Below are positions 4,243 through 33,675 of a DNA stretch of 58,268 nt, in pieces. The position numbers and the translations under genes were made by a program. Under the pieces are notes generated by a model that did not search any database, had not been told where the DNA came from, and saw nothing but the letters and a program-made list of their open reading frames with translations. Numbering within the stretch: the first letter of the stretch is position 1; every line of letters starts with the position of its first letter. Origin of the DNA: Candidatus Falkowbacteria bacterium (GTDB lineage: Bacteria; Patescibacteriota; Patescibacteriia; Patescibacteriales; GWE2-39-37); assembly GCA_013336275.1 (NCBI GenBank), contig JAAXUA010000002.1, forward strand, positions 193,904 to 252,171. Reading direction: 5' to 3'.

Positions 4243-4665
4243 ATGATTAATCTTGAGTATTTGACAATTGATGATTCGCTTCGCCCGTTGCAGGAAGGGG
4301 TCTTTCCTGGCCAGGCGGCAAGAACGGCGCGAGCCGCCTCTGCCACCATCTTTTGCGTTGCCTTGCTGCTCGGTAGCATGTGCCGGATCAATGTGGCCGA
4401 TGCGGCGACCAATGTCTCGATGAGCGTCGAAGAGAATCCGTATAACAAAGTCGCGGCCCAGCTCAAAGAAAAGGAAAAGAATATTTCCGAGAGGGAAAGG
4501 TTGGTAAGCAAGTATGAAAAGGAGCTCCAGCGGAGCAATATGGTTTTGGCGCTTTTCGTGTTGCTCCTGTTTCTTTTGATAATGCTCAATTATTATCTCG
4601 ACTACCACCGCAGGAGATTGGATGAGGAGAAAAAGCCTGATAACGTCAGATATTTAAAGCTGTGA
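4243..4665 (+). CDS. Small protein: signal-like helix, coiled coil, C-terminal TM (start uncertain)
   Basis: Hydrophobic segment ending VADA; NPYNKVAAQLKEKEKNISERERL coiled coil; TM MVLALFVLLLFLLIMLNYYL; RRR stop-transfer. Confidence 0.65.
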   Translation: MINLEYLTIDDSLRPLQEGVFPGQAARTARAASATIFCVALLLGSMCRINVADAATNVSMSVEENPYNKVAAQLKEKEKNISERERLVSKYEKELQRSNMVLALFVLLLFLLIMLNYYLDYHRRRLDEEKKPDNVRYLKL

Positions 4666-6518
4666 GTATGCCCAAGATCGGCACAATCATATCGTTCGGC
4701 AAAGCGGCGCTGTTGGCCTCGCTATTTTTTTTATTTATCGCTGCCTACTCGGCCGACGCCTCACGCTTGGCTTTTGTCAGTGATAAGATTTCCCGGTCTT
4801 GGCCCGGAGCCAGCACTTCTCATGAAATCAGGTTCTCTTTAGTTAATTCCATCCCTCCTGGCGGCAGGATCATAATCACTCCGGCTAGCGGACAGTTCGA
4901 TATCCAGCCGGGTTTCGATCATACTGATGTCGATTTGGCTGTCGCCGACAATCCTGGCGGTCCATATGCGGAGCGTGAGTTGGCAGCAGCAAGCAGCGCC
5001 ATTGATGATGGTGCCAGCGTCGTGACAGGAGCAAATGGCAGCATCACTCTGGATCTGAACTCTTCCGAAGGCATCGGTATGGGTAAATTCGTGCGTGTCA
5101 GACTAGGCATTACGGCCGTTTATGGGTCAACCGGAGACACGTTGATACAGAATCCTGGATCGATCGGATCTTACCAGGTTCACGTCGCAACGTTCGATGA
5201 TTTGGGAACGCCGCTCGACGCCGCCGATGCCATGATCGCGGTTATCACACCGATATCGGTATCGGCCAACCAGGCGAAAATCAGGAGCAATGGCGCACCG
5301 ACCGGCATCCTGGTCGGCGGCACACTGCAGACGATCTTGTCATTGAATACTAATTATGATGGCACTTGCAGATATTCGATCGCTTCGAATACGCCTTATG
5401 CGAGCATGACAGGCATTTTTACAAGCACGGGCGCAAAGTTCCATTCGACTATCATCGGCGGTTTGTCCGATGGCAATTATTACTATTACTACGTCCGTTG
5501 CCGCGACTCTTTCGGCGTCAACGATGTGGATGATTATCTCATAACCTTTTCCGTTGCAAACGCTAATGGCGGCTCCGGCGGTACGGGAGGCGGGACAGGA
5601 GGCGGTACGGGTTCGGGCACAGGGTCGGGCAGCGGCTCCGGCGGCGGGGGTGGCGGTACAGGAGGCGGTACAGGTTCGGGTGTCGGTCCAGGCAGCAGCG
5701 GCGGCGCTGGCGGCGGAGGAGCTGGCGGCGCTGGCGGCGGACCAGGCGGTCCATCGCCGGTTGCGACCGAACCGTATCCGCCCAAGCCGGAGAACCCTGA
5801 CTTATCGCTATCGGGCTGGTCCAGTCCGAACAGCAGTCTGGTCTTATTGAAAGATGGCAAGGAGCTGACCAGGGCCGGGGCTGACGCCGCCGCTAAATTT
5901 TCCTTCGGTGTCAAAGACTTGACCGAAGGCATGTATTCATTCGGTATTTATTATACGGATACGGAAAATCGCCGTTCTCGCAACTACACTAATACGTTTT
6001 GGATCAAGCAGGATTCCAAAACGGTCTTGAATTCCATAATAGTGCCGCCGACCATGGCTATCGCCAAATCAAATCTGGCATTAGGCGAGACTTTGAATGT
6101 CGTGGGTCAGTCGGTGCCAGATGCTACTATCGAGCTATGGATCGAGCCGGTCAAGACGGGTGTGACGGCCAAGGATATTGTAAAACAGCAGGGAACGATC
6201 GGCAGTAACGGCAAGTGGAGCCTGGCGGTCGACACGAAAGCCTTGGCCAAAGGAGCTTACAATGTTCGTGGCAGAACCATGATCAAGGTCGTGGGTTACA
6301 GCGACTTCAGCCAAATAGTACCGGTTGGACTAGGTGAGTCGGTCAGCGCAGGCGTCTGTGCTGGCGCTGATCTCAACAAGGATGGCAAGGTTAACTTGAT
6401 CGATTTTTCGATCCTGCTTTACTATTGGGGTTCAAGCAACGCATGCGCCGACCAAAACAAGGATGGCAAAGTGAACCTGATTGATTTCAGTATCATGCTG
6501 TATAATTGGACCGGATAA
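4662..6518 (+). CDS. Secreted Ig-like protein with Gly-rich linker and C-terminal dockerin-like duplicated Ca-binding loops
   Basis: Signal peptide (GTG 4662 or ATG 4668); long Gly/Ser/Thr linker; C-terminus ADLNKDGKVNLIDFSILLYYWG...ADQNKDGKVNLIDFSIMLYNWTG. Confidence 0.8.
   Translation: MSMPKIGTIISFGKAALLASLFFLFIAAYSADASRLAFVSDKISRSWPGASTSHEIRFSLVNSIPPGGRIIITPASGQFDIQPGFDHTDVDLAVADNPGGPYAERELAAASSAIDDGASVVTGANGSITLDLNSSEGIGMGKFVRVRLGITAVYGSTGDTLIQNPGSIGSYQVHVATFDDLGTPLDAADAMIAVITPISVSANQAKIRSNGAPTGILVGGTLQTILSLNTNYDGTCRYSIASNTPYASMTGIFTSTGAKFHSTIIGGLSDGNYYYYYVRCRDSFGVNDVDDYLITFSVANANGGSGGTGGGTGGGTGSGTGSGSGSGGGGGGTGGGTGSGVGPGSSGGAGGGGAGGAGGGPGGPSPVATEPYPPKPENPDLSLSGWSSPNSSLVLLKDGKELTRAGADAAAKFSFGVKDLTEGMYSFGIYYTDTENRRSRNYTNTFWIKQDSKTVLNSIIVPPTMAIAKSNLALGETLNVVGQSVPDATIELWIEPVKTGVTAKDIVKQQGTIGSNGKWSLAVDTKALAKGAYNVRGRTMIKVVGYSDFSQIVPVGLGESVSAGVCAGADLNKDGKVNLIDFSILLYYWGSSNACADQNKDGKVNLIDFSIMLYNWTG
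5569..5752 (+). repeat. Low-complexity Gly-rich coding linker (GGSGGTGGGTGGGTGSG...)
   Basis: Repeated GGC GGT ACA GGA units; explains the Pro-rich antisense shadow ORF at 5534-5932. Confidence 0.85.
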
Positions 6519-6560
6519 GATATGCCTGCCCGAGATGAGTTTAGTTCGCCGTTCTGAATT

Positions 6561-6588
6561 TTGTCCAAAACGACGTTCGTGCTATAAT
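6561..6588 (+). promoter_or_regulatory. Sigma70-like promoter for hsp20 and the cohesin gene
   Basis: TTGTCC-N16-TATAAT with TGn extended -10, in an AT-rich intergenic gap. Confidence 0.55.
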
Positions 6589-6664
6589 TAATATAATAAT
6601 TTCGTGAAATTAATTTTGTCTAATAAGGCGCGGTCGACAAAGTCCGCCGCACCCAGCAAAATGT

Positions 6665-7132
6665 ATGTCTTTCCTGGATAAATTAAAACGCAAAGTCGAC
6701 GTATTGGAAGAGGGCAAGCTGAAAGAGGTTGAAAATGGCGAAGCAAAAAAGGAAACTCTGAGCAGCGGGACCAGCTACGCCCAGCTTGATGTCGATATAT
6801 ACGAAACGCCTGAGAAGTATGTAATCTTAGGCTCGATCGCCGGAGTCGATATCAAGAACATCGAGCTTTCGGTCGGTGAAGAGAACGACGTCCTGATTAT
6901 CCAAGGGAAGAAGGAGTCGCCGATAGATCAGCTCAAGGCCGGTGAGTCCAAGATCGTGCCACATCATCAGGAATGCCAGTGGGGAGAGTTCTATCGCCAG
7001 ATTATTTTGCCTCAGGAAATAAATCCCGAATTGATCGAGGCTTACGAAGAAAAAGGCGTTCTGGTAATCATTCTTCCGATGCTCAGGCTGCAGCGGGGCA
7101 AGAAGAATATCCAAGTCAGCTTAAAAGCTTGA
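6665..7132 (+). CDS. Hsp20/alpha-crystallin small heat-shock protein
   Basis: DVDIYETPEKYVILGSIAGV, LIIQGKK, ECQWGEFYRQIILP, GVLVIILP; C-terminal IQV (IxI/V) motif. Confidence 0.9.
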   Translation: MSFLDKLKRKVDVLEEGKLKEVENGEAKKETLSSGTSYAQLDVDIYETPEKYVILGSIAGVDIKNIELSVGEENDVLIIQGKKESPIDQLKAGESKIVPHHQECQWGEFYRQIILPQEINPELIEAYEEKGVLVIILPMLRLQRGKKNIQVSLKA

Positions 7133-7149
7133 AATTAGATTGATATATT

Positions 7150-8982
7150 ATGGTTAATATCAGAACAAAAAGAGTTTGGCATTTGATTCTGACTCAGGTC
7201 CTGGTGCTGAGCTTTTTGTTTTCTGGAGGACAGCCGACTCAGGCAGCCGGAGCCACCCTCCTTCTTTCGCCAAGCAAGGGCAGTTATAATGTCGGAGCGA
7301 CGTTTTCAGTCGGCGTTTATATCAATAGCGGCGGCTTAAGTATCAATGCGGCCGAAGCCACACTCGCTTTCGACAAGGACACTTTGAAAGTGAACACCAT
7401 CAGCCAGTCAGGCTCTATTTTTGAACTTTGGACCGCCAAACCTTCATATTCCAATACAAAGGGTACTATTAATTTTGGTGGCGGCGCCACCTCGCCGTAT
7501 AAAGGCAGTTCCGGTAAGGTTTTTTCAATCAGTTTCACCGCCTTGAAACAGGGCCAGGCCCAGGTCAGTTTTTCCGGGGGCATGATTACCGAATACGGAC
7601 CAGAGGGCAAGAATGTCTATGGCGGTGCTAACTCCGGCTCTTACACCATCGCCGAAAAGAAGCCCGAGGTCATAGATAAGCCGAAAGTTGTGCCAAGCGA
7701 CAGTACGGGCAATAGCACGACCAAGGATACGAACACCAAGCCCAAGCCGGCAAACGATAGCCAGACCGAAACCAGTTCTTCCAAGGGCTTGTTGCCACCG
7801 GCTCCGGAAATCACTTCAACCTCGCATCCCAACCAAGAGGATTGGTATCCGGTTGACAAGGTTGCCTTGGATTGGAAAATACTGCCTAGCATCACCGGCG
7901 CCAGCCTGCTGCTCACCGAAAGTCCGAGCTCAACTCTGGCCAATACATCTGATGGCGTAATCCAGACCAAGACCTATGAAAAACTGGCCGACGGCAAGCA
8001 TTATTTCCATATCAAGCTGCAGAATAGCGTCGGCTGGGGCCCGACAGCCCATCGCAAGATCTTGGTCGACAAGACGCCGCCCACCACTCCGCGATTGGAG
8101 ATTGACAACGGCGGAGACGCGACCAACCCGAGCGTACTCTTGCGCGTATCGTCGAATGATATCACTTCCGGCCTGAGCAAGTATAAGTTGGGATTCAATA
8201 ACACTGACAAGGACCTAGAGCCGCGCGACTATATCCTTTCGCCGTATCAGATGGAGAAGCTTCTCCCTGGCCGCTATACGGCATCGGTCAATTCTTATGA
8301 CAAGGCCGGCAACATGGCCACCTCTTCCATCACTTTCGTAGTCGAGCCGCTCAAGGCGCCGATGATAACGGACATGCCGAAAGAAATAAAGACTCGGGAC
8401 GACCTGATAGTCCGCGGCGCTTCATTCTACCCTAATTCGACTATCAGCGTCTTTATCAGCAGCAATGGGGGCGATCCTGTAAAGAATGACATCAAAGCCG
8501 ATGAGAATGGTGATTGGAATTATTTCCACTCCGGCAAGCTGGCCAAAGGCAATTATGAAGTCTGGGCCAAAGTCACGGATGATCGTGGTGCGGAGAGCCT
8601 TAACGGCTCGAAGCAGCCGCTCTCCGTTGTCGCCGTGGATTATATTACCGCCTACGGCTTGTATATCATCATCTTGCTGGCTTTCCTGATCATCTTGCTG
8701 GTTCTATACATCATCATCCTGAAGAAGAATTTCCGAGCAGAGAAAGCCAAGATCTTGGACGAAACTTTGGAGGCGCAGAAAAAGGTCAATGACATTTTCT
8801 TGGCCTTGCAAGAAGAAGTGGATGAGCTGATCATCTATGCCGATAAAAAGGCTGGTTTGTCTGAGTCGGAGCGGAGAATCAAGGAAAAAATCAAGGAGGC
8901 CTTAGATATTTCAGAAGAATTCCTTAATAAGGAAATCGAAGACATCGAAAAAGAAATTATCGTCTCCAAAAAGAAAAAATAG
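7150..8982 (+). CDS. Cohesin-domain surface protein with Ig-like domains, C-terminal TM and cytoplasmic coiled coil
   Basis: LLLSPSKGSYNVGATFSVGVYINSGG..INAAEATLAFD...WTAKPSYSN..GTINFGGG cohesin pattern; TM GLYIIILLAFLIILLVLYIIIL; paralog of 33676-35469. Confidence 0.85.
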   Translation: MVNIRTKRVWHLILTQVLVLSFLFSGGQPTQAAGATLLLSPSKGSYNVGATFSVGVYINSGGLSINAAEATLAFDKDTLKVNTISQSGSIFELWTAKPSYSNTKGTINFGGGATSPYKGSSGKVFSISFTALKQGQAQVSFSGGMITEYGPEGKNVYGGANSGSYTIAEKKPEVIDKPKVVPSDSTGNSTTKDTNTKPKPANDSQTETSSSKGLLPPAPEITSTSHPNQEDWYPVDKVALDWKILPSITGASLLLTESPSSTLANTSDGVIQTKTYEKLADGKHYFHIKLQNSVGWGPTAHRKILVDKTPPTTPRLEIDNGGDATNPSVLLRVSSNDITSGLSKYKLGFNNTDKDLEPRDYILSPYQMEKLLPGRYTASVNSYDKAGNMATSSITFVVEPLKAPMITDMPKEIKTRDDLIVRGASFYPNSTISVFISSNGGDPVKNDIKADENGDWNYFHSGKLAKGNYEVWAKVTDDRGAESLNGSKQPLSVVAVDYITAYGLYIIILLAFLIILLVLYIIILKKNFRAEKAKILDETLEAQKKVNDIFLALQEEVDELIIYADKKAGLSESERRIKEKIKEALDISEEFLNKEIEDIEKEIIVSKKKK

Positions 8983-9014: not shown

Positions 9015-9047
9015 AAGCGACCGGCCCAAGCCGGTCGCTTTTTATTT
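9015..9047 (+). terminator. Rho-independent terminator
   Basis: AAGCGACCGGC-ccaa-GCCGGTCGCTT followed by TTTATTT. Confidence 0.85.
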
Positions 9048-9179: not shown

Positions 9180-9241
9180 CTCTATCCGTTGAAATACTCA
9201 ACCGATAGAGCTTGAGCCGACGGGCCAAAATCTGGTATAAT
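9180..9241 (+). promoter_or_regulatory. Promoter of the giant adhesin gene with an adjacent upstream inverted repeat
   Basis: TTGAGC(9212)-N18-TATAAT(9236) with TG extension; inverted repeat CTCTATCCGTTGA-aatac-TCAACCGATAGAG at 9180-9210. Confidence 0.5.
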
Positions 9242-9322: not shown

Positions 9323-12300
9323 ATGCTTGTCACGTTCGAAAAAAACAAAAACCTATTGTTTAGGATTTTAGTTGTATTTGTATTAATATCAGCTTCTTTT
9401 TGCTTGTTTCAAGTTGCTTCCAGACCTGCCGAGGCTCAAAACCAAACCGGCCAAACCAGCAGGTTGAATATTTTTCCTGGTTCGTTCGATCCCGTCGATG
9501 ATCAGTCGGGGCTCGCTTGGAAAAAGATCGGCAATGCTTTCGTCAACGATCTTTCAGAGAATGCCGATTTGGGCGAGTATAATCAGGACAACTCGGCCTT
9601 GATTATGAGCTCGATGACCGGGTTAGGAAGTTCAGTCGACACGCCGGTGCCCACCTCGAGCGCACCCGTTGAATCGGCCGAACCTCAGGAGGTTCCGAGT
9701 GCGGAGCCCGAGGCTGCGCCAGATGGAGGCCAACAGCCTGCATCAGAAACCGAGGCCCCTTCATTGGAAAAAGAGAAGACAGGGGAAGAAATATCGGAAC
9801 CGGAAGCGGCGTTGCCGACTGAACAGGTCGAATCCGCGGTTGAGCCACCCGCATCGGCCGAACCATTATCCCGCCTGATCAAGGGTTTCTTCGGCAGTTT
9901 GCTTCCCGATTTTTTCAGCGGCTTAGAGGATGCCGGAGTCAGTGTTACGGCCCTGGCTGCTAATTTTTCCAAACTCGATACTGCAAGCGCCCAAGATGTG
10001 GAAGAGGTGACAGTTCCGGGTGTGGCCGCAACCTCTACGCCTGATGCGACTCCTCCAGCGATGGCGTACGCAGCGCACGACATGATTCTCAAAGATTTCA
10101 GCCTTCCGGACGGCTTCAGTTCGAGCACGATCGCCAATGTCCAACTGCGGCTTTCGTTGGCTGCCCAAAGCAGCGTGGAAGAGGACAGGTTGAAGATTTA
10201 TTATACGCTTGATGAAAACTGGGAGGAGATGGGCCTTCTTGACCTTGGAGACCAGCTGTCGAATCAGAGCAATAACGGCTATTTCCTATTCGGACTGCCA
10301 ATTTTCGAGTCTTGGGAAAAGCTTGGAAAGCTGCGTATCAAGGTCAGTTATCTCGAAGCCCGCACCGGGGATGAGCAGCGTACGGTCGAGGCCTTCATTG
10401 ATGGTGCTTGGCTCGAAGTCGATTATGACGGCACGGATAAAGCGTCGATCAAGAGCGACCCTGGCCAAGATGATGAAGCGGCAGCCAAGAATAGCGATGA
10501 ATTCACCTTGGACCTGATTTCGGGAAAAGATAATTTCAAAACAGCCGACAATCCGGAATTCAATTTCCTATATCAGCGCAAGCAGGGCTTTATCGGCAAA
10601 ACCATCTCCGAAGTCCTGGGAACTTTTTGGGACCAATATGGCGGGATCGAGATCGAGGCTGCAATAATCGATGCCGGCGGAAAACGGACCCCTGTAGAAA
10701 CGAGCCTCGACTATCTGGCAGACGGAGAATTCAGGATCAGGCTCAAAAATCAGATGCGTTATGTCCGGCCCGGAAAGTATTCAATCGAATTGAAAATCAG
10801 TGATGGCGACAAGTCATACGTCCAAACGCAGGATTTCAGCTGGGGCGTCTTGGCGATAAATGCCAGCAAGTCCGTTTATGTTCCTGGTGAAACGGCTTTC
10901 CTGCAGATGGCAGCTTTGGATGACTTCGGCAACACCATCTGCGATGCCGACCTGTTCTTGGAAGTTACGGCGCCTGACGGCGGCGTCGCTTATCTCAATA
11001 CCGGAAACGACCTAGTGGTGCGCAACAGCGCCTGCGGGCCGAATAACGTAATCGATACCCCTGATTACTTCGCTCACTACGGCGTAGGTGGGGCAGGAGT
11101 TTATCAGTTAAAGCTGATCGCCCGCACGCCTAACGGCAACAAGGAAATCACCGACTCTTTCGAAGTGCGTGATGCTGTGCCGTTCGATGTCGAGCGCGTC
11201 GGCCCGACCAGAATATACCCCTTGGCCGACTACAAGATGCGGATCAATATCCGGGCGAACGAGGATTATGCCGGAGACATTTCCGAAGTCGTGCCCGGAC
11301 CATTCAAGATAGTCTCCCAAGAACTCCTGCTTAACGGCTCACCGCTTGGGCAGGGCGGCAGGCTGGATGTGACGAACGATGGCCACGACGGCAGCGTCAT
11401 GACCTGGCGCAACATCAGATTGAAACAATACGACTCGTTATCGATAGTCTATGAGTTCGACGCTCCTGACATTTCTCCTGAATTTTATCTCTTGGGTCCA
11501 TTGTCCATTGGTAATTTCACCGAGGCCCGCAAGTGGCAGATCGCCTCAGATGCGGTTTCGGTCGTTCTGGCGACCGCCGGCTCCGGCGTTAACTGGACCA
11601 ATGCTGCCAATGCTTGGAATGGCACGAACAACACCTATGCCTCCAGGGACATACCGCAGGGCGGCGCCAATGACTCGGCTAACTATTTGAAGGCAACAGC
11701 TAATAGTGCCACCGACTTGGGCGGCACCATCACGCAGGTCGAGATCGGCGTCGAAGGGTACGTCGAGCGAACTACGGTCAGCGCCTGGCTCCGTCCATTG
11801 TTGAATGGCACAGCTACGGGTACGCCGCAACAGATTCCCGGAACAACCCTGACAACCGCTGACACTGGTGCGACTTTTTATGTCGATATCACAAGCGCCA
11901 GCTCTTCTTGGACCTGGGCAAATATCCAGAATTTGGACGTATTGGTCCATGGCAGCAGCAGCGCGGCGCAGAATCGATTTCTGTATATCGACCAGATCAG
12001 TATCAGGGTGACCTATACGCCGCCGAATTCAGTACCGACCGGACTAATCAATAGCGCGATACAAAAGACCGACGGCTCTGGCAAGGTCGATTTCGCATTC
12101 AATGTCAGCGATGCCGATGGTGACACCTCCAAAGCCAAGATAGAATACGTCGCCGGCTCGAACTGCGATTTCGCTTCGCCGGGCGACCCGACGATAGATG
12201 CCGCGACGACGGCCACTTTCGGTGCGCCTGTAGTCGATAATTCTTCGGCCTATCAGGTCGGTACGACTACTGGCTGGATATTGACGGCCTCCGGCACCAA

Positions 12301-15300
12301 TACCGTCAATGTCGACTGGAACTCGAAAACCGACATTCCTACAGGAGATGGCGTTTATTGTATGCGGCTGACGGCCAATGACAAGTCGGATGACCAGACA
12401 TCGCCAGCGACCACCACTGTCACGATTGATAATATGGCGCCGACCGCGCCAGGGCAATTGGCCGCTACTACGAGTCCGGCGGGAAATGGGGCGCTCTTGT
12501 CCTTCGGCGCCACCTCGACCGATAGCAACTTCAGCGAGTATAAGATCTATTATAAAGTCGGGTCGTCGGGTGTCACGGAAAACGATCAGGTCTTTGACAA
12601 GGACCTTGATGGCGACTTGGATTACGCGAATTACAACAGCGCCACCTCGACCACCATCGATGACCTTGCGCCTTTGACGACTTATGTTTTTTCCATCTGG
12701 GCTTATGACCAATATGGCAACAAGTCAAGCTCGAGCGAGGTCACGCTGACTACCGGCAAGGCTGCACCGTTGCGAGCCAATTCGGTGATCTTTTTGGCCG
12801 GACAATATTCCTCTAGCGACGGCGCGACCGGCCAACAATCAGACACTGACCAGACGCTTCCGGCTTTCGACTTCAAGCTGGCCGAGACAGGAGCCAAGAT
12901 CAAGAACGCCTATCTGGTTTTCGAGGGCCACTTCGAGTCATATGCCAACAATGCCGGCAGTTACACCAGCCATAAGCTGGCCTTCGACGCTTGCCAGCAG
13001 CCTTGCACGGCCAATGCCTTTACGGGCACCGGCAACATTTCCTTGACCGATAGCACGGTCCTGGCTTACGACGAAACCGGCAGCAACCAGGTTCGGTTGG
13101 TTTTGGACGTGACGAACGAAGCCCAGCTGGCCGCTTATTCTGGTAATGGCTCTCTCCTGTCAGGACAGGTCGGCTATAGCATCAATAGGGGCACGGCAAT
13201 AAATTCGATTTCAGCTGCCAAGGCGACCTTGGCAGTCACTTACCAATATGACGAAGACGATACCGATAGCTACACTAATACCGTAGTTTATCCTCTCGAA
13301 TCGACAGTGGCCGGTGATCAGGGTACGCGTCGGGCCGTTCAGGCGGATGACTGCACGGTCGATAGCACTTGCCCGATTTTCGCTTATAACATGGATATTC
13401 CAGAGTTCGGCGAAAAGCTTTCCCAATGGTTCCAAACTTATAATCAGAATGATGGCAACAGTACGGCTGACATGAACTCCAATGTGAATATCCAGGGCAC
13501 TAATTTCGACAGCAATACTTATGTCCACGAGTCGGCCCTGGGCGGCACTCAGGGCGGATCGCCAGTGATCTATTTTTATGATGTCAACGGATATGCCGAG
13601 AGTACTGCTCAACAGCTTGAGTATCACGCCACCAGTCCTGGAGCTACGCTGACCTATTATCTTTTGGGCGGGGAAGTCGTCGAGACGTATGTGGCATCGA
13701 CCTCGGCGGCTACTAAAACCCGTACCGCCGTCATACCAGTAGGTGTCGTCAACAACGGTTTGACAACGACCAAGACGGGAGCTACATCTACTATGTATTT
13801 CCCTGAGAACGGCCAATCGACTGGCGTGGTTTCTATCAAGAAGGCCTGGTTCAGGATCATTACTAATAATTACAACACTGCAGCCAATACGGTCACCGTC
13901 TCGACCAAGGTCGGTACCCGGGCTGAAACAGCCGGCTCGGTTTATAATTACAATCAGGCCGGAACTTCGATCAAGCCGTCATTCAACATCATTCACGTCA
14001 TACCGTCGGCCGATTACGCTGAGCTGCAATCTGCCAATGCCACGACACCCAAGGCGGTTTCCGTCTATACGCAGAACAGCATCGGCACATCGCACGGCGG
14101 CACTTCTGTTGAATTGGTCATCACTTATAGTTATACGACCGAGGTATTCGGGCACCTGTCTTCACTTTCGCTTACGGCCGGGCAGACCAATGTCAACGGC
14201 AATAGCCAGAACGCCACGACCTCGGTCGCCCGCTTTTTCGCTCCCGAGGCGCCGAATTCCAAAACCCTTATTTCGGGAGGCTTGTTGGCGAGCTACCTGC
14301 TTTCCGCCAGCAACGGCACCATGCCTGGCGCCGGTCTGACTATTGATGCCAACATTTCTACTGGTACGCCGACCTGTACTAATGCCTACAACTCCCGACC
14401 GGACTCGGTCAACGCCTTCACTGAGTTTTATAAAGACGTGACTTCACGCCTGTCGGTCACTAATAATCAGCGGTATATCGCCTGCTATTCCAACGATGGC
14501 GGAGCGAATGCCACGGCTGGCGGCAAGATGAACGGCATACTTCGCTACGTCTATCGTTATGACGCTCCGCCGGTCCAATATCGGCAAGGGGATTGGCGCT
14601 GGTATGACAATGCCAATAGCTTGGCCCCTGGACCGGCCCGGGGTGGCGAAAAGGCAACTACCACCGGCGTGAATCTCTCCGATGTCGTGCGCTTGCGTCT
14701 CAATGTCGGATCGCTGGCGGAGACGGCAGTGACCTCGAGCCAATCTTTCAGGCTGCAGTATGGCCTAGGGTCGAATTGCTCAGCTATCGTCAGCTGGTCT
14801 GATGTCGGAACAACGACCAGCGCCTCACCTTGGAGAAGCTATAATAATACGAACGTAGCTGACGGGTCTTCGACTGCCAGCGCCTTGCTTTCGACTTCGA
14901 ATAAGTTCGAAACCTATGAAGAGGACAACCCCACAAGCCTTAATCCGCAAGGCTTGGACGAAGGGGAATATGGCGAGTGGGATTGGGTCTTGTATAATAA
15001 TTCGGCCACATCTTCATCGGACTATTGTTTCCGCATGACCAAGAGCGACGGAACGATCTTGACCGATTACGGCAGCTATCCGGTGCTGACTACGGCTGCC
15101 AGCAATACCGCGCCTAATCTGCCTGACAACCTGATCCAATATCTTGGAGCGGCCGGCACGACGACGATAGCCAATCAGGCCTGGATCAACCAGACAACGA
15201 TCAGGCTGCTATCCGACGCCACCGACGTGAATATAAACGAATCCATAGGTCTTTATTATGAATTGATTACTGACGGCACCGCCTTCCGGTCGTCGACGGT

Positions 15301-18300
15301 CAGGCCGACCAGCACCTGCGCCTATGGCACGACCTTCGCTGCCTGCGCTTCCAAGGTCTGGGCCGCCACCTCGACGCTGGGCGACTATCGCTATTCCGCT
15401 TTTGTGGCGACGACCAGCATTACGGCATTGCCTCAGGATTATAACGGGTACAAGTGGCAAGTCATCGCTTGCGACGACAGCGCCGCCTGTTCGCTTTGGA
15501 ATAAATACGGTCCGAACCCCAATTTCAGAATCGACCTGACCGCGCCGACCGCCCCGGGCAGCTTGACGCTCAACAGCCGCAGCGTAACGAGCATCACATT
15601 GAATTTTGGAGCCTCAACCACTGAGGCGAATTTCGATCGATACCGCATCTACTACAAGAAGGCGACGACCACGGTCAGTGAGTCGGACACCCAGCATTCG
15701 GATTCGGATCTCGATTACATAAATTACAACGGCACGGCTACTACGACCGTGACTTCACTGACGGCCGGTTCGACCTATGTCTTCAATATCTGGGCCTACG
15801 ACCTAGCGGGCAACAAGACAAGTTCGACCCAGGTGCTTGTCGCTTCAACCACCAGCTCTTTCACTCCGCCGTCGGGTAGCATCATCACTACGGCTCAGAA
15901 GACTGACGGGTCAGGCGCGATAGATTTCACCATTTCTGCGCAAGACCCGGATAATGACGACACGTTGCGGGCCAAGATCGATTATGTGGCCGGAGTCGGT
16001 TGCGACTTTTCTTCTCCTAGCAAAGCGACCATTGATACGGCCGATGCCAATACTACCGCTACCTATGGCGACCCTAAGGTCGACCAGGCAGCGACTTACC
16101 AGGTCGGTACTACCTCCGGTTGGATAGTGACTTCGTTAGGAAACAATTTCGTACTGTTCGATTGGCTGTCAAAGAGCGATATTCCCAACATCAACGCCAC
16201 CTATTGCGTTCGTTTGACAATCAATGACGGCTTGTTCGACCAAGCCACCTCCTCAACCAAGCTGATATTGATCGATAATATAGACCCGGCCAATCCAGGC
16301 AATCTATCCCAAATCAGCAAGAACCATAATTCGGTCAGGCTTGGCTTCGGCGCCCCGAGCTCCGACACCAATTTTTACCGGTACCGCCTTTTTTACTCGA
16401 CGTCCTCTCCCGTAACCGAAGCCGGAAGCGAGCAAGCCGACGGCAATCTTAATAACGTCGGGTATAACGGCGCGACTACAACCCTGGTTACCGGTTTGTT
16501 GCCCGACACCCAATACTACTTCAAGATCTGGGCGTATGATGATTATGGCAACAAGGCCAGTTCGTCCCAGTTGGCCATCAGGACGAATGCTTACCCTTAC
16601 AGCCTGGCAGTCGGCGGCCAAACTCAGAGCAATAATAGCGCGATTGCCAACGGCGCTTGGACGCCGGAAAACCAAATCAAGCTTTTCGGCTCAGCCAAGG
16701 ATCCTGACACTTCCGAGGTGCTGACGCTTTATTTCGAATTTCTGCCCAATGCCAGCTCATTCAAGACGGCAACTACGGTCCCGGTAGGCGCTTGCGCATA
16801 TGGCACGGCATATAATTCCTGCGCTTCCAAGATCTGGTTCGTGTCATCAAGCTCGCCGGCTGATTATTCAGTCAACCCTTTCAGTGCCACGACCAGCATT
16901 ACCGGCATTCCGGATAGCGTTAGCGGCTATAAGTGGCAAGTCCTAGCTTGCGATGATGACGGCAGCTGTACTAGTTGGCAAATTTTTAATGCGGTAACTC
17001 CGAACGTCAAGGTCGACACGACCCCGCCTACGGCCCCTGGTGCCCTGACATTCAACTCTAAGACCAGTACCGAAGTGACATTGGCGTTCGGCTCCTCTAC
17101 ATCCGAGACTAATTTCAGCCAGTACAGGATTTTCTATTCGACCTCGACGCCGGTTACGGCAACATCGAGCGAACAGACGGATGCCAACCTCGACTTCATT
17201 AATTATAATGGCGCGACTCTGACTACGGTTCCGAACCTGTCGCCGAACACCCAATATTATTTCAATATCTGGGCTTATGATTTGGCCGGCCTTTATGCCA
17301 CCTCGACCGAAGTGGCAGTCACGACCAATCCGACGGTTTCAACCCCGGGCGTCTATTTCTACACCAAAAATACACGAGTTTTATTCTACAGGGTCTGGAG
17401 CGGCATCTCCTGGGGAGCGGAACAGTCTGGCCCGACTTTGGGCAGCGCCGCCGGAGACAACATCCGCCATATCGATTCGATCCGTTCGGATGACGGCGGC
17501 AAAGTGGCAGTCTTGGTCAAGACTTGGGACGGCACTAACCAGGAGTGGTGGGGCACGGTCTATCGGGTGGCCGCCAATAATTTTGCCACCTCCTCCATCC
17601 TTGGAGCCGCTCAGAACAACGCTACAACCAACAATCTGATTACTGGGTGCATGGGGAGCTTGTCTAGCGGAGAGTTCTTCGTGGTCAGGAACAACAATGC
17701 CGCTAACGGCACTTTGGTTTATTCCTGGTCGGCGACGGGCGGCTGGGTAGCGGAAGGCGCCGGCCCGAATCCGGTAGCGGTCCTGACCGGCTGTCAGCTG
17801 ACCAGAAGGCCCAGCTCTGACAATTACCTCCTGACGACTTTCGATAACGCGGTCGATCTCGGCAGCGCTTATTATACCGGAACCTCGACCTATTCCAACT
17901 CTTGGACGACCTGGAACGAACATTCGACCAACGAGAATAATGTCAACAATTTCGTCGGCGAAAGCTTCTTCGATCCGGGAGATAATACGCGCGGCGCCAT
18001 CAATTACTCGAATAGCGCCGTCAACACCTATACCAATGCTAAGAATTTCCTGGCAGACGGCTCGAGCATCTCTTACGGATCCGCATCGACCAGTCCGCAA
18101 ACTGCGCCAGACAATTGGGGTGGCGCCTTTGTCCAGGGTAAATTTTCGGCCGACTTCGGCAGCATCGGCTTGGCTTATTTCGCCGGCCGTGATGCGAGCG
18201 ACCAGCTGAACGTTTATAAGGTGGATATTACTAATGGCACGCCTGATTGGTCGACGGTCACCAATGGAGACAATATTTCCACCAGTACGCTATACAATGA

Positions 18301-21300
18301 GACTAACTTCGCTCAGATGCCTTTCGACATCGCTTTCTATAAATATTATAGAGGGGTTGTCGTTTGGAACGCCGCCGCCTCGACGACGCCTAAATATCGT
18401 ATCCTAAACTCGACCACGAACACGATTGACGCGGTCAATACGGCCGTGCAAGGAGCGACCTCTTCAGTCTGGACCCGCGTCAAGCTGTACAAGGACCCGA
18501 ATGAGATCGAGCTCCTGGCAGCTTTCCAAAGCACGAATATCAATTACGGAGCAGTTTTCTTCAATGGAGCCGCCAATCAATTCTATAGTGCCGGCAATCA
18601 GGCCTGGCTCAATGTCGCCACCAACACCGGTGCCTTCAGCGCGAACGATGCTGCAGTCTCCTTCACCTATACCGCCGGAAATTCGGCACCGAACACGCCG
18701 ACAGCTTTACTGCAGCAGCGCAGCGACGCCAGCACCACGATTGCCAATGGCAATTGGACCAACCAGAATCAAGTCTATGTAGGCGCAAGCGCCATAGATC
18801 CGGATACTAGTGAAGTCATCACGCTCTACACCCAGCTAGTCGCCAATGCTTCCGCTTTTGCCACCAGTACGGCCTTGCCTTCAGGCGCCTGCGTTTGGGG
18901 CACTGCCTATGGCTCATGTGCCTCCAAGATCTGGTTCGTGGCCTCAAGCTCACCTGGTGATTATAGCGTTACGCCTTATTCCAACAAGGTGAATATCACC
19001 GGCTTGCCTGACTCCGCAACCGGCTACAAATGGCAGGTAATCGCATGCGATGATTCTTTGTCGACAACCACGGCTTGTTCCAATTGGGTCGCATTCAACT
19101 CCACTCAACCTAATTTCAAGGTCGATACGACAGCCCCGACGGCGCCTGGCGCTTTGACGATCGCCTCGAAGAACAGCAATAGCGTCACTTTGCGTCTGGG
19201 TGCTACTACGACCGAGTCAAACTTCTCCTCATACCGCATTTATTACAAGGCAGGGGCTTCCGGCGCGACCGAAGCCGATACCTTGCAGAGCGACGCCAAT
19301 CTCGGATTCATAAATTACAACGGCGCGACGACGAGCTTAGTGATCAACCTGGCTTCCACCACGCAATATGTCTTCAATATCTGGGCGTATGATCTGGCCG
19401 GTAACAAGGCGACGGCCACGCCGGAGGTCTCAACTACGACCAGTGTCGGTCCGATTATGGCCCAGACCTCATATATCTTCGAGAATGATGATGGCGCCAA
19501 TGTCAATTCCAATTCTTCGGCCGCAGCGGCTTCGACGAGTTTGGCTAACCTGAATAAGGGAGAGCGTTTCGATGCCCGCATCCAGATTGAGAATCGCGGC
19601 GGCGACGTCGCTAGCAACAAAGTTTATAAACTGCAATTCGAGAACCAGACCGATGCGCCAGGAACTTGGGCTGATGTCTCTAATAATTCCGGCATCGCTT
19701 ATGGTCTGGGCATCTCCGGCAACGATGGCGATGCCGTCACCTCCGCCAAGGCTAGCGCTAACGCCAATGCATGGGTCAATGGAACTTGGCACGAGGGAAC
19801 GAATCTCACCTCAGCCAAGACCTTGGCCAACGGCCAGTATACAGAACTCGTCTTCGCCTTGCGCACCAATAACGCGCTCACTGGCAAGACTTACCGGCTG
19901 CGCCTCTACAACAGTACGGATAATAAAGTTTTGGAAGTTTACAATAATTATCCTGCCGTTTCGATCGTGGCTAGCGAAACAGTCAGGCACTCGAAAGGGA
20001 ACTACCCCAGTCTGCCGACCGGAACGACGGACCTTACCTACTATCTCGACCCCAAAGGCTACGGCGATGTGGCTGCGGATGATAATTCCAACCGTGATCC
20101 GTTGACCGTTACAGCCCAATATCCGATCTTCTACTTCGTGACCAAGAATTCGACCAACACCCAGGCCATTACCGCAACTTGGAACGGCCAGTCATCGATA
20201 TCTTCGGTTGGATCCAACATGTATCTCCAGGTTTATCGTTTCGGTACGACTAATGCCTGGGTGACGGTCGACCTGGAAACGACCTTCTCTGCCAATACGG
20301 ACTTTACGATGACGGCTTCCTTGAATTCCAGACTGTCAGAATATTATGACGGTTCGAACTGGACCTACTGGCGCGTCTATCAAGATGCTGGCACCGAGAC
20401 TCTGCGTACGGATTATTTCAATGCGACTTTCTCGGCTCCGGTTGCCGATACCTGGCAGAAACATTACCGTTGGCGCTCCAATTTCGGCAACGAGACAACG
20501 GCTTTCTGGCTTGAAGCCGAAGATGTGGGAAGTCCGACCGCTTCAACCTCGCTCCAAAAGAACGTAACGACCCGCCTAAGGCTATCGGCGGCCAATACTG
20601 GAGGCGGAGCTGCAAATCAGCAGTACCAGATACAATACGCGACTACGACCGGCAACTGCGCTAGCGACCCTGGCGGCTGGGCGACGATTCCGACCTCGAC
20701 AACCCTAGCCTTCCGCATGTCCACGACCACGACCATCAATAATGGTTCAAGCACCACGCAGCAGCTGGCTAATGCCGAGGGTTACACCTTCGTTCCAGGC
20801 CGCTTAGTCAAGGACCCGTCAAATAAGGCCACGACCACGACGCTTGCCGAATCGAGGTATACGGAAATAGAATTCGCCTTCTTCGCCACCAACAATGCCG
20901 TGGATAACACCACTTATTGCTTCAGGATGACGGACAATGGAACGCCGCTCAATCATTATGACCGCTATGCCGAATTAACCGTCAATCCGAACGCCAACGC
21001 GGCTCCGACTTTCGTAGTCGACCCTTCAGATAACGGCTCAGCTACCAACACGCCGACAAATTTCGGCGGCCAAATCGCCTTTGCTGCCACAGGCGAAGAT
21101 ACGGACAACGATAGCTACTACCTGGCAATCTGTCAGACTAACAGCGTTGCTCCTGGGAACGATGCCCCGCCGACCTGCGGTGGCGGCAGCTGGTGCATTT
21201 CAAGCTTGGCCTCCAGCACGCAGGAGGCGACTTGCAGCTACACGGCCGCCACCTCGAGCGAATCATCGGCTTGGTACGGTTTTGCCTGCGATAAGAAGGC

Positions 21301-27585: not shown

Positions 27586-29319
27586 ATGTCGCAAGCAATT
27601 AAAAAACAACTCAAACGATCGTATCCCGTCGTGGCCGGTTTTTTGATTCTGAATATCGCCATCTCAGCCGTGTTTTTCAACATGCGCTTCAATCTTTTAG
27701 AAATCAGCTGGCTTAACGGTGCTCAGGCCCAGGATTCGGCCACCAGCTCTGTTACCGTCAAGAACGCGCCGCCGGCCTTCACGGTCAATGCAGCCGAAAA
27801 CCCGACGTCTTCTTCAACTTCGCCGGTCAATGTCGGCGCTAATATCAGCTTTACCGGCACGGCCGATGACCCGGAAAATAACAGTTATTACTTGATTGTT
27901 TGCGATAGTACGGCTACGGCCACTCCTGGCGCCGGTGGCGCCGCCCCGACCTGCAGTGTCGGCAACACCATCAACTGCGTTTCCGGCTTGACTGGCGATA
28001 CGGCTCAGGCAAGCTGCACCTACGGCAATGTGGCTGATCCTGGAGCTGAGACCAAGAACTGGGCTGCTTTTGTCTGCGATAATCACGCCACCCAGGCCCA
28101 GTGTACGACTGTCGGCAATTCCGGCTCAGGTGATTCCGGCTCTCCGTACTATGTCAACCATGCCCCTACCTTTACGGCAGTGGCCACGACTGATGACAAC
28201 AAGGATCCTGGAGGCATATTTACCATCCAGGGCAACGTAGGCGATACAGATGCCCAGGGCGGAGTCGATACCTTGACCATGAGCGTCTGCAGTTCGAATA
28301 GCTGGTCCACCACCACCGGTTGTGCTGCCACCACATTCTGCACCGGCACCACGACCGGCGCTACGGTTTCCTGCACCTATACCAGCCCGGTTCCGATGGC
28401 TCATGGAACCTCTTCATATTATGCCTTTGTCAAAGATTGGCATCAGTTAGCCTCTGCCGCCAACTCGAGAACTAGCGTAATCACTACCAACAATGTCGCT
28501 CCTTCAGTGAGCAATATCGTCCTGAACGGCGGTTCACTCATTACCTTATTAAATAAGGGTGCCGGGCCAAAAACAGTAACCGCATCCTCATCTTCGGTTA
28601 CGGACAATAACGGTTGTGCCGACTTGGTTGACGCCACCAGCACTATTTATTATTCGGCAGTCGCCGGCGGAGCCGACTGCACGGCCGACGACAATAATTG
28701 TTATAAGTCGGCAGCAGCTGCTTGCAACGTTTCTGACTGTTCAGGCGGTGTCGATACCGTGGCCACAGTAGTATGCAGCGCTGGCTTGGAATATCATGCC
28801 ATCCCAACTGACATTTCCACGGGAAATCCGTACACTTCAAACGGCTGGATTGCTTCGATTTTTCCCTATGATGAAACCCTCTCAGCCAGTCTTGCCACAA
28901 GCAGTCCGGTCGACGTGTTTACTAATATGGCTCTAGACGTCTCTGAGGCGACAATTCCTTATGGCATCTTACAGGCTGGACAGAATACTGCCGGTTACAA
29001 CGCAACCACCACAGTCATAAATTTTGGCAATTGTCCTTTGGCTAGCGATATAGATGGAACTTGGATGTCTAACGGCGGCAATCATATAGGGGAAAATAAC
29101 CAGAAATTTGATCTCTCAACAGCCGTTTACGGGTCGCTTACTTATAATCTATCTTCCACGACGCCACAAACCTTGAACCTTTCTGCTCGACCAACCAGCG
29201 CGGCTAACGTGACCAGGCCAGTTTATTGGGGTATCAATATCCCGGCTTTGCTGCCCTCGGGTGATTATTACGGTACGAATACATTTACAGCAGGACTTTA
29301 TTCCGGCGGAGTTTGGTAA
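27586..29319 (+). CDS. Secreted Cys-rich Ig-like protein with WxL/TasA-like C-terminal domain; candidate major fibre or surface-layer subunit
   Basis: Signal peptide ending AQA; 17 Cys; C-terminus VYWGINIP...GDYYGTNTFTA; paralog of the giant protein C-terminus; monocistronic. Confidence 0.75.
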   Translation: MSQAIKKQLKRSYPVVAGFLILNIAISAVFFNMRFNLLEISWLNGAQAQDSATSSVTVKNAPPAFTVNAAENPTSSSTSPVNVGANISFTGTADDPENNSYYLIVCDSTATATPGAGGAAPTCSVGNTINCVSGLTGDTAQASCTYGNVADPGAETKNWAAFVCDNHATQAQCTTVGNSGSGDSGSPYYVNHAPTFTAVATTDDNKDPGGIFTIQGNVGDTDAQGGVDTLTMSVCSSNSWSTTTGCAATTFCTGTTTGATVSCTYTSPVPMAHGTSSYYAFVKDWHQLASAANSRTSVITTNNVAPSVSNIVLNGGSLITLLNKGAGPKTVTASSSSVTDNNGCADLVDATSTIYYSAVAGGADCTADDNNCYKSAAAACNVSDCSGGVDTVATVVCSAGLEYHAIPTDISTGNPYTSNGWIASIFPYDETLSASLATSSPVDVFTNMALDVSEATIPYGILQAGQNTAGYNATTTVINFGNCPLASDIDGTWMSNGGNHIGENNQKFDLSTAVYGSLTYNLSSTTPQTLNLSARPTSAANVTRPVYWGINIPALLPSGDYYGTNTFTAGLYSGGVW

Positions 29320-30167: not shown

Positions 30168-31256
30168 ATGAAAAGGGGAGCAATAACTAATCTTTTCGGT
30201 TTTTTCACGGTTGCGCTGTGCCTTTTGGGGTACGCTAAGAGCGCGTCTGCCGGTTTCGGTATCTCACCGCCATATCTTAAGAATCAGCAGCTAGTGCCTG
30301 GTTCGAGGTTCGAGCAGCAGATCACTTTGCTGCGTTCGTCGGCTGACGAGGACCTGAAGGCAACTATCAAGGTCAACGCGCCGGAAATCGCCCCTTGGAT
30401 TACTATCGATAAGGGCGAGGAATTCGTCTTGCCCAAGGGCGAGGTGCAGGTGCCGATGATCGTAACGGTTAACGTGCCCAAGAGCGCCGAATTAGGCAAC
30501 TACAAAGGCAGCATAAATATCAAGGTCGCATCGGCCAATGCTGCTACGGCCGGCGTTGCCATCGCCCTCGGTGCCCGCGTAGATATCGATCTGACTCTTA
30601 CCAACGTCGCCAATAGCGACTTCGTGGTCAAGACAGCCGCCATCCCTGATTTTGAGATGCTTGAGTGGCCGTGGAATTGGAAGATCTTCAGTACCTTCCT
30701 TCATCGCGCCACAGTCGTCTTGAATATCGAGAATATCGGCAACGTCGAAACCGCACCATCAAAGGTCGCTTTGGAGATTCTCGACATCTCCAAGACCAAG
30801 ACTTTGGAGAATCTGATGGACAAGTCGATTGATAAGATACCTTCATTCTCAACCAAGGAAGTTTCCGCCCATTTCCCGACCAAGCTAGGCGTCGGCCAGT
30901 ATTGGGGCAAGGTCAAAGTCTATAAGGGCAACGATATAGTTAATGCCTATGAAATCGCCTTTACCATAGCTAAGCCGGGTGAATTGCCTAATGGCGGATT
31001 AAGCCTCGGTTTGTTGCCTTGGCTGCTCCTCGCCGGCTATATCGTAATCGCCATCATCGTTTTGTCTTTCCTGATCAAGATCAAGGTTTGGCGTTTGACC
31101 GGCAAAGGTCTGGCTCTGCTGCTCGCCCAGTTCTTCGCTCCGATCCGCCCGGTCGCCAGAGCGGTATCCAAATCGACCAACAGCATGAAGACCGGTTTCT
31201 GGCGCTGGGTTGGCACCAAGGTTTCCCAGCATAATGACCGCGATCGTCGCGACTAA
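30168..31256 (+). CDS. DUF916/WxLIP-like two-Ig-domain protein with C-terminal TM
   Basis: Signal peptide ending ASA; GFGISPPY; IAPWITI...VPMIVTVNVP...LGNYKGSI; IENIGNVETAP; TM LLPWLLLAGYIVIAIIVLSFLI. Confidence 0.7.
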   Translation: MKRGAITNLFGFFTVALCLLGYAKSASAGFGISPPYLKNQQLVPGSRFEQQITLLRSSADEDLKATIKVNAPEIAPWITIDKGEEFVLPKGEVQVPMIVTVNVPKSAELGNYKGSINIKVASANAATAGVAIALGARVDIDLTLTNVANSDFVVKTAAIPDFEMLEWPWNWKIFSTFLHRATVVLNIENIGNVETAPSKVALEILDISKTKTLENLMDKSIDKIPSFSTKEVSAHFPTKLGVGQYWGKVKVYKGNDIVNAYEIAFTIAKPGELPNGGLSLGLLPWLLLAGYIVIAIIVLSFLIKIKVWRLTGKGLALLLAQFFAPIRPVARAVSKSTNSMKTGFWRWVGTKVSQHNDRDRRD

Positions 31257-32602: not shown

Positions 32603-32634
32603 CACAATTTACAATTATCAATTTACAACTCTCA

Positions 32635-33657: not shown

Positions 33658-33675
33658 AGATAACAAGTCAAGGAG

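Follow-up and report, generated by a model that had tools for sequence, protein, structure and literature searches.

How do the cells of the Patescibacteria, also known as the Candidate Phyla Radiation (CPR), keep their secreted proteins at the surface? These bacteria are thought to be attached to hosts, and little is known about the way in which giant adhesins and fibres are held by cells without an outer membrane. The question is raised here by a stretch of 58,268 nucleotides (nt) from a Candidatus Falkowbacteria bacterium (assembly GCA_013336275.1, contig JAAXUA010000002.1, positions 193,904 to 252,171), hereafter the window, in which five co-directional genes, denoted A to E, encode secreted proteins ending in a dockerin (A and C) and membrane proteins beginning with a cohesin (B, D and E). 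The succession of a dockerin gene and one or more cohesin genes that the initial annotation recorded at 4662-8982 (cassette 1) and again at 31352-35469 (cassette 2) is found at precisely these coordinates, with one Hsp20 gene inserted in cassette 1. A likely answer to the question is that the two cassettes are paralogous, non-cellulosomal cohesin-dockerin anchoring sets, in which a Ca-dependent, non-covalent joint would hold secreted proteins on membrane stalks. The observations from which this answer is built are the identities of the domains, the topology of the proteins, the conserved pairing of the genes and the covariation of cysteines in the dockerins. The source genome (1.2 Mb in 10 contigs, completeness 96.7%) encodes three dockerins and five cohesin-like proteins altogether, and the nearest named relatives of the window proteins come from Candidatus Falkowbacteria, Parcubacteria and "Patescibacteria group" bacteria.

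The dockerin proteins, which both carry a signal peptide and have no membrane anchor after it, and their C-terminal modules are as follows.

4662..6518, + strand: A, secreted protein of 618 amino acids (aa), with a signal peptide, two beta domains, a Gly/Ser-rich linker, two immunoglobulin (Ig)-like domains and a C-terminal dockerin
6357..6515, + strand: dockerin module of A, residues ~566-618, with Ca loops D570-D581 and D597-D608 and with Cys566 and Cys595
31352..32602, + strand: C, secreted protein of 416 aa, with a signal peptide, a conserved N-terminal strand, two Cys-rich repeats, a Gly-rich linker, two Ig-like domains and a dockerin
32441..32599, + strand: dockerin module of C, residues 364-416, with Ca loops D368-D379 and D395-D406 and with Cys364 and Cys393

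Each of these dockerins consists of two tandem repeats of ~22 residues (DLNKDGKVNLID and DQNKDGKVNLID in A, DLNKDKKTNLVD and DQNRNKKVDLID in C), and each repeat comprises a 12-residue Ca loop, with Asp or Asn at positions 1, 3, 5, 9 and 12, followed by a helix. The five Ca-ligand positions do not vary among 34 homologues of the C type and 22 of the A type; the residues of A that are invariant across its 22 homologues are D570, N572, D574, D581, D597, N599 and D608. A and C have identical recognition helices: the strings DFSILLYYWG and DFSIMLYNWTG, picked out in the initial annotation, are present in both proteins. The two repeats within the A dockerin are nearly symmetric (17 of 21 residues identical). 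The Pfam dockerin family PF00404 (gathering threshold 22.9 bits) matches A with 33.3 bits when the whole protein is scanned and with 38.2 bits when the tail is scanned alone. The family also matches most of the at least 60 homologues of A (~580-640 aa, with D41, S46, H54 and F58 conserved in the N-terminal part), and a precomputed match exists for most of the ~420-aa orthologues of C, a family with more than 1,300 matches of which some are titled 'dockerin type I domain-containing protein' by NCBI. A five-sequence profile of such tails matches solved type I dockerins (CelS 2mte/1daq, E 1.6e-5). By these sequence comparisons, A and C carry type-I-like dockerins. In the AlphaFold2 model of C, helices are predicted at residues 377-385 and 404-415, with a predicted local distance difference test score (pLDDT) of 76-90 there; a Foldseek search with the whole C model retrieves tandem-Ig proteins only, so that the dockerin is not informed by its matches. 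Membership in the GC-type dockerin family (NCBIfam NF041540, cut-off 29 bits) was considered and rejected, given a score of only 20.1 bits for A and the lack of a match for C. In both proteins, the head is parted from the Ig-Ig-dockerin tail by a low-complexity linker rich in Gly, Ser and Thr (5560-5770, residues ~300-370 of A; 31770-31855, residues 140-168 of C), which in the homologues keeps its position and varies in length, and in the C model has a pLDDT below 50.

The dockerins of A and C share a further feature, a cysteine ahead of each Ca loop, seen already in the initial annotation and now placed at position -4 of loop 1 and -2 of loop 2. Both cysteines are at least 90% conserved across the 34 C-type sequences. 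Among 120 C-type homologues, 116 have both cysteines, 3 have neither and none has a single one, the remaining sequence ending before the dockerin. In a wider set of 198 C-terminal dockerins, drawn from the A and C families and from loci fetched in the phylum survey described below, the pair is present in 124 and absent altogether in 55; in another 10, the first cysteine is kept and the partner is located instead in the last helix (YCWTG), four residues away from the C-terminus, and most of the eight dockerins with an apparently single, N-terminal cysteine have a second one inside a Ca loop. Cysteines that are either paired or absent, with alternative positions for the partner, are as expected for residues joined by a disulfide. 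The genome also contains four genes for DsbA-like proteins (Thioredoxin_4; contig C3, 119521-120003; contig C1, 138056-138532, 107273-107755 and 62865-63341), fitting the abundance of Cys-rich secreted proteins (C has 14 cysteines and a 577-aa protein of the window has 17). Together, the covariation and the DsbA-like genes support the disulfide clamp suggested in the initial annotation, and the covariation itself points to a putative staple within the dockerin. VKOR, considered as the disulfide oxidant, was rejected since it is absent from the genome, which has the DsbA-like genes. A comparable tie is the clasp of the Ruminococcus flavefaciens ScaA dockerin (PMC3821032), a stabilising contact that joins the ends of the module, resembling the ten relatives in which the partner cysteine lies near the C-terminus; the tie proposed here would differ in being a covalent disulfide and, in A and C, in having its partner just before the second Ca loop.

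The cohesin side of the two cassettes comprises three proteins.

7150..8982, + strand: B, type I membrane protein of 610 aa, with a signal peptide, a cohesin, a linker rich in Ser, Thr, Lys and Pro, Ig-like domains (Big_13), a transmembrane (TM) helix and a cytoplasmic helical tail
7249..7659, + strand: cohesin domain of B, residues ~34-170, assigned with AlphaFold2 and Foldseek
32590..33657, + strand: D, short membrane-anchored cohesin protein of 355 aa, with a signal peptide, a cohesin, one Ig-like domain and a C-terminal TM helix
33676..35469, + strand: E, membrane-anchored cohesin stalk of 597 aa with a B-like architecture, matched by PF00963 and with a TM helix at residues ~492-518

The Pfam cohesin family PF00963 (gathering threshold 24.1 bits) matches residues 47-152 of E with 40.6 bits, a match obtained only when the N-terminal 179 aa are scanned alone, and some orthologues of E are titled 'cohesin domain-containing protein' by NCBI. 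B and D count as cohesins because they are homologous to E: B and E are 31% identical over 616 aa (E 2e-90), D and the cohesin of E 33% over 206 aa (E 3e-18), and D and B 34% over 114 aa. Searches of the PDB by sequence are weak, the cohesin domain of B alone retrieving nothing relevant, and the fold of B was therefore decided by structure prediction. The AlphaFold2 model of the B domain, made from a 12-sequence alignment, has a pLDDT of 94.2 and a predicted template modelling score of 0.87, and in the Foldseek search of the PDB with this model, ranks 1-42 are all occupied by cohesins, with template modelling scores of 0.63-0.77. The top match is the chain 6kge_A (E 1e-11, template modelling score 0.75), 4ums and 4dh2 are also among the best-matching type I cohesins, and the non-cellulosomal cohesins 2xdh, 2vo8 and 2jh2 are among the top matches as well. 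According to the model, the B domain has the nine-stranded beta-sandwich (jelly-roll) fold of cohesins.

In B, D and E alike, an N-terminal signal peptide is combined with a single hydrophobic helix near the C-terminus that is followed by basic residues, in agreement with the membrane anchors that the initial annotation assigned to all three. The helix lies at residues ~500-526 of B and ~327-347 of D, the start of the latter protein being probably ATG 32635 rather than TTG 32590. With this topology, the cohesin is located at the outer tip of the protein. The stalk beneath it consists of the linker and Ig-like domains (Big_13, 50 bits in B) in B and E, and of one short domain in D. B and E alone add a charged, helical cytoplasmic tail of ~75-85 aa (8728-8979 and 35230-35466). 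These tails end in a conserved motif, with the consensus ...EKKI.KEIKDVE.ILK and with E588 invariant across 18 sequences, suggesting, by its conservation, a conserved cytoplasmic partner.

The conservation of the dockerin-cohesin pairing extends far beyond the window. In a survey of 301 Patescibacteria genomes with profiles of the E/B cohesin family and of the dockerin, the cohesin profile matched 91 genomes and the dockerin profile 70; both are present in 53 genomes, the dockerin only in 17, the cohesin only in 38 and neither in 193 (odds ratio 15.8, Fisher p 6.5e-20, phylogeny not corrected). A cohesin-family match lies downstream on the same strand within 700 nt of at least 40 of the 60 best dockerin matches and within 2 kb of at least 44 of them, the latter in 39 of 47 genomes. 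These figures are lower bounds, counted among the matches listed, and some contigs stop at the locus; chance alone would give, by a rough estimate that assumes a few matches in each 1-Mb genome, less than one such adjacency. All 20 fetched loci (L004-L023) encode a dockerin-ending protein of 244-1320 aa with a signal peptide, then one or two proteins with an N-terminal cohesin and, on most of these, a C-terminal TM helix. The spacing between dockerin and cohesin genes is mostly within 100 nt, in dozens of families that differ in their cargo. In addition, three proteins (from L012, L011 and L019) combine an N-terminal cohesin with a C-terminal dockerin and belong to chains that end with a TM cohesin, resembling adaptor scaffoldins in their sequence organization; the dockerins of these double-module proteins are confirmed by Pfam, and their cohesins are found by the family profile only, with Pfam scores below threshold. 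Given that the pairing recurs across the phylum, it most likely serves to fasten surface proteins to the cell.

Several observations weigh against this conclusion. The family profiles by which the initial annotation proposed to check its assignments give a divided outcome: PF00404 is positive for A and borderline for C, which scores 18.3 bits as a whole protein and 23.0 bits as an isolated module, at the cut-off, and PF00963 is positive only for E, with no match in B or D even at E up to 10. A 12-sequence cohesin profile finds the solved cohesins of the PDB weakly (E 0.04-0.27). The statistics of adjacency and co-occurrence ignore shared ancestry, and 16 of the 60 dockerin matches are without an adjacent cohesin among the matches listed, some contigs ending there. 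With regard to the staple, a bond from position -4 of loop 1 to position -2 of loop 2 spans the dockerin module, and its feasibility is not obvious. The same genome also encodes modules that stand apart from any pair, namely two cohesin proteins with neither a TM helix nor an adjacent dockerin (contig C3, 66681-67571; contig C1, 177622-178236) and a third dockerin, internal to a 584-aa protein (contig C9, 125417-127171), with no cohesin neighbour.

The first of the orphan cohesin proteins (296 aa; PF00963, 26.1 bits) ends in two ~50-aa repeats that belong to no Pfam family and follow the pattern GRILLQVE..G..WY..P....YYLGRPADAF..MRKLGLG, and the second (204 aa) lies ~2.5 kb upstream of a gene for a 3446-aa protein. 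The third dockerin scores 22.2 bits with PF00404 in hmmscan and 26.8 bits in the genome search, and also has a cysteine before each Ca loop, in CYPGQLKGDLDHDG and MCCVDIDGN.

Orphan modules of this kind are what could be expected if the folds were real and the partners did not bind each other, the cohesin tips binding instead a host or glycan ligand, the dockerin being a Ca-stabilised end domain, and the adjacency of the genes reflecting co-regulation. Reportedly, as Peer and colleagues are said to have noted in 2009, non-cellulosomal cohesin and dockerin modules are often without demonstrated partners. We nevertheless regard this alternative as improbable: a dockerin tail is followed by a cohesin head in the same order, on the same strand and mostly less than 100 nt away in dozens of families with differing cargo, the double-module proteins sit in chains that end with a TM cohesin, and the dockerin helices are nearly invariant across families that are otherwise 45-50% identical.

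The part of the protein that precedes the Ig-Ig-dockerin tail varies across the phylum, and includes Ig stalks, PA14 with Big_7, an M11/M12-like metallopeptidase, an InlB-type repeat and fn3 domains; in the window, the variable head is a pair of Cys-rich repeats in C and two beta domains in A. Two loci (L014, 238-2964; L023, 256-2982) encode 908-aa secreted metallopeptidases similar to gametolysin and reprolysin, with a terminal dockerin and followed by a cohesin gene, so that in some lineages the tether carries an enzyme. The initial annotation described the cassettes as a plug-and-socket system for the display of interchangeable modules. The folds, the conserved gene order, the varied cargo and the membrane stalks speak for such a display, with binding assumed from the behaviour of the families; as this genome has only two or three dockerins, it is mainly across the phylum that the modules can be called interchangeable.

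A miniature cellulosome for the breakdown of polysaccharides is a very unlikely explanation of these genes. The types of modules are common to cellulosomes, and in one relative the cargo of the dockerin combines PA14 with sub-threshold glycosidase-like matches, another carrying a metallopeptidase as cargo. Against these resemblances stand the small number of dockerins (only three in a 1.2-Mb genome) and the nature of the cargoes, which are mostly Ig-like stalks. B, D and E carry a single cohesin each, and no glycoside hydrolase, carbohydrate-binding module or multi-cohesin scaffoldin was found in either cassette; the cellulosome was rejected on the lack of the first two, and the remark in the initial annotation that no partner carries a glycoside hydrolase is borne out, with no such family matching A-E.

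The closest counterparts of the window proteins are, all the same, to be found among the single-cohesin anchors of cellulosomes. OlpA and OlpC of Clostridium thermocellum (3ul4, 4dh2) and the CaCohA2-Doc0917 pair of C. acetobutylicum (6kge) have the type-I-like cohesin fold seen here and are among the best structural matches, and such anchors share with the window the nearly symmetric, two-repeat Ca dockerin and the role of holding dockerin proteins at the surface. They differ in the anchor, which consists of S-layer homology repeats or a sortase linkage in the cellulosome proteins and of a single TM helix, with a cytoplasmic tail in B and E, in the window. Other distinctions of the window are that the cargo is something other than a carbohydrate-active enzyme, that the partners are encoded side by side, that the dockerin has a covarying pair of cysteines and that the host is an ultra-small patescibacterial cell. 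The cohesin of Archaeoglobus fulgidus (2xdh) and the modules of Clostridium perfringens GH84C and GH33 (2vo8, 2jh2, 2w1n) likewise pair outside cellulose degradation, but those modules reside on enzymes and toxins or in one double-module protein, whereas here the arrangement is a phylum-wide operon of secreted dockerin proteins and membrane-stalk cohesins. Chains of the ScaA-ScaB-ScaE type in Ruminococcus flavefaciens, in which adaptor scaffoldins connect the cargo dockerin, via a cohesin-dockerin protein, to a cohesin anchor (PMC4959524), are paralleled in L012, L011 and L019; the window, by contrast, has one step only, and its anchor is a TM helix rather than the sortase-linked ScaE.

The two sets of the window are old paralogues and not, as the initial annotation put it, two copies of one cassette. 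The cassettes are 29-38% identical, and the likeness of A and C is confined to the C-terminal 247 aa (the two Ig-like domains and the dockerin), which are 37% identical. The near identity of the dockerins does not result from recent gene conversion, a possibility that was considered and rejected: in this region, A and C are 83% identical in DNA and 69% in protein, the DNA differences are spread along the length, and the dockerin of A is no closer to that of C than orthologues from other genomes are. Selection thus explains the likeness. Since A and C do not differ in their recognition helices and have nearly symmetric repeats, cross-binding between the cohesins of the two sets, that is, a shared specificity, as well as a dual binding mode, would be expected.

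The joint can be envisaged as follows. The dockerin proteins A and C would be exported by the Sec pathway, after which the dockerin would fold oxidatively and take up Ca. This type-I-like module, composed of two Ca-binding repeats and probably secured by a disulfide, would then plug non-covalently into the cohesin at the tip of B or, in cassette 2, of D and E. The Ig-like stalk of the cohesin protein would carry the joint away from the membrane, and the single helix, together with the cytoplasmic helical tail in B and E, would hold the stalk in the cell. D, being short, and E, being long, would offer sockets at two heights. In this manner, the surface would retain the variable N-terminal head of the dockerin protein together with its ligand, which in cassette 1 is probably the neighbouring giant adhesin. 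The physical binding, its dependence on Ca, the matching of particular cohesins with particular dockerins and the role of the cargo are inferred by analogy with the known behaviour of the two families.

The two cassettes belong to two different larger conserved loci, of which the relevant features in the window are the following.

6665..7132, + strand: cytoplasmic Hsp20/alpha-crystallin protein of 155 aa (PF00011, 41.7 bits; no signal peptide), between A and B
9015..9040, + strand: terminator-like hairpin with an 11-bp stem and a T tail, just after B, found by a consensus scan only
9323..22555, + strand: giant surface protein of 4410 aa, directly downstream of B, a candidate for the tethered cargo
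27586..29319, + strand: Cys-rich secreted protein of 577 aa, a paralogue of the C-terminal module of the giant protein
30168..31256, + strand: membrane-anchored, beta-rich protein of 362 aa, directly upstream of C, a candidate chaperone

The locus of cassette 1 runs from WxLIP-like proteins and a small TM protein through an FGE-sulfatase-like protein, which is an optional member, to A, Hsp20, B and the giant protein, an order present in three distant relatives (L024-L026). There, a gene for a 154-aa HSP20 protein occupies the same position (L024, 10514-10978; L025, 11173-11637; L026, 11178-11642), and a gene for a protein of 4379-5517 aa follows the A-Hsp20-B block. Hsp20 may partner with the cytoplasmic tail of B. 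The hairpin after B, which is a strong one, together with a promoter-like site upstream of the giant gene (9212-9241, TTGAGC-18-TATAAT with TG), indicates that the giant protein is probably transcribed apart from A, Hsp20 and B. Just upstream of A, at 3375-4223, lies the gene for the FGE-sulfatase-like secreted protein, with the fold of formylglycine-generating enzymes, which is present twice at the corresponding site in L025 (7331-8996). The locus of cassette 2 consists of a ~360-aa membrane protein, C, D and E, in an order that is kept in the relatives L001-L003, in one of which the upstream region contains MacB-type ATP-binding cassette transporter genes and a 588-aa protein, as in the window. 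The C-terminal 514 aa of the giant protein are 41% identical to the 577-aa protein, an orthologue of which (588 aa) is found at the same position in L003. By virtue of this homology, each cassette adjoins one carrier of the same module.

These neighbours suggest a refinement of the anchoring model that we find possible and somewhat doubtful, namely that the joint is the base anchor of a pilus or fibre. C would terminate, as its last subunit, a donor-strand-exchange fibre made of the 577-aa protein, with the 362-aa protein as the chaperone; the N-terminal strand of C would plug the last pilin, the dockerin would replace the sortase or TM anchor found in known systems, and A would play the part of C for the giant adhesin. 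There are precedents for this arrangement in the Pam pili of CPR bacteria, whose chaperones are anchored in the membrane and whose terminator, PamR, has a TM anchor (PMC13278184), and in the Elr pili, in which the LPxTG protein ElrB bears an N-terminal donor strand (bioRxiv 10.64898/2026.10.17.759780). Pam is thus anchored by a TM helix and Elr by sortase, and neither paper mentions a cohesin or dockerin. The window shares with these pili the WxLIP/DUF916-like neighbours (PF06030, 29.7 bits, in the protein encoded at 1605-3335), a candidate pilin and a giant candidate tip with a common C-terminal module, and a candidate terminator with an N-terminal strand, although its membership in this class of pili is putative.

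The mature N-terminus of C fits the part of a donor strand, having the consensus TSVTVLLV, with T31 and V33 at least 90% conserved and a pLDDT below 50 in the monomer model, and resembling the N-termini of the 577-aa protein (mature DSATSSVTV) and of its orthologue in L003. The homology of the 577-aa protein to the C-terminus of the giant protein points in the same direction. The strand motif is, however, short, it lies five residues from the first invariant cysteine and may therefore belong to the Cys-rich domain, and the conserved N-terminus of A is unlike it. A similar balance applies to the chaperone. The gene that immediately precedes C in the window, and likewise in L001-L003, encodes a beta-rich TM protein of 360-380 aa with a signal peptide, orthologues of the 362-aa protein precede the dockerin gene directly also in G267, and the 362-aa protein has a weak BLAST match (E 4e-5) to the WxLIP-like protein encoded at 616-1599. 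Yet it has no Pfam or PDB match, and its family, found in 17 of the 301 genomes and adjoining a dockerin gene in only two, is rare compared to the far wider dockerin-cohesin pairs; on these grounds, the 362-aa protein was rejected as a universal partner of the joint.

Extended beyond the window, the same line of thought leads to a more tentative conjecture, that fibres and giant adhesins in CPR bacteria of the Paceibacteria type have their missing membrane anchor in the joint of dockerin and cohesin. The dockerin proteins would then be terminator or adaptor subunits that join a fibre, or the C-terminal module of a giant protein, by their N-terminal part. The short D would sit near the membrane, and the long E or B would reach past the wall. 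A link between the external assembly and the cytoplasm would be provided by the conserved tail of B and E and by the conserved Hsp20 gene, and outside the cell the plug would gain stability, or redox sensitivity, from its disulfide staple.

The annotations of the individual domains are already public, and a search of the literature found no paper describing dockerin-cohesin operons in CPR, Patescibacteria or Parcubacteria; what is new is the reading of these genes as a system, with conserved partners, and not the modules. Should the anchoring model be correct, a phylum-wide, operon-encoded, TM-anchored tether would provide a concrete answer to the question of how adhesins and fibres are held by these bacteria. 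The biology of cohesins and dockerins would then extend well beyond the degradation of polysaccharides, and the toolbox for protein assembly would gain naturally disulfide-stapled dockerins and compact, membrane-anchored cohesins.

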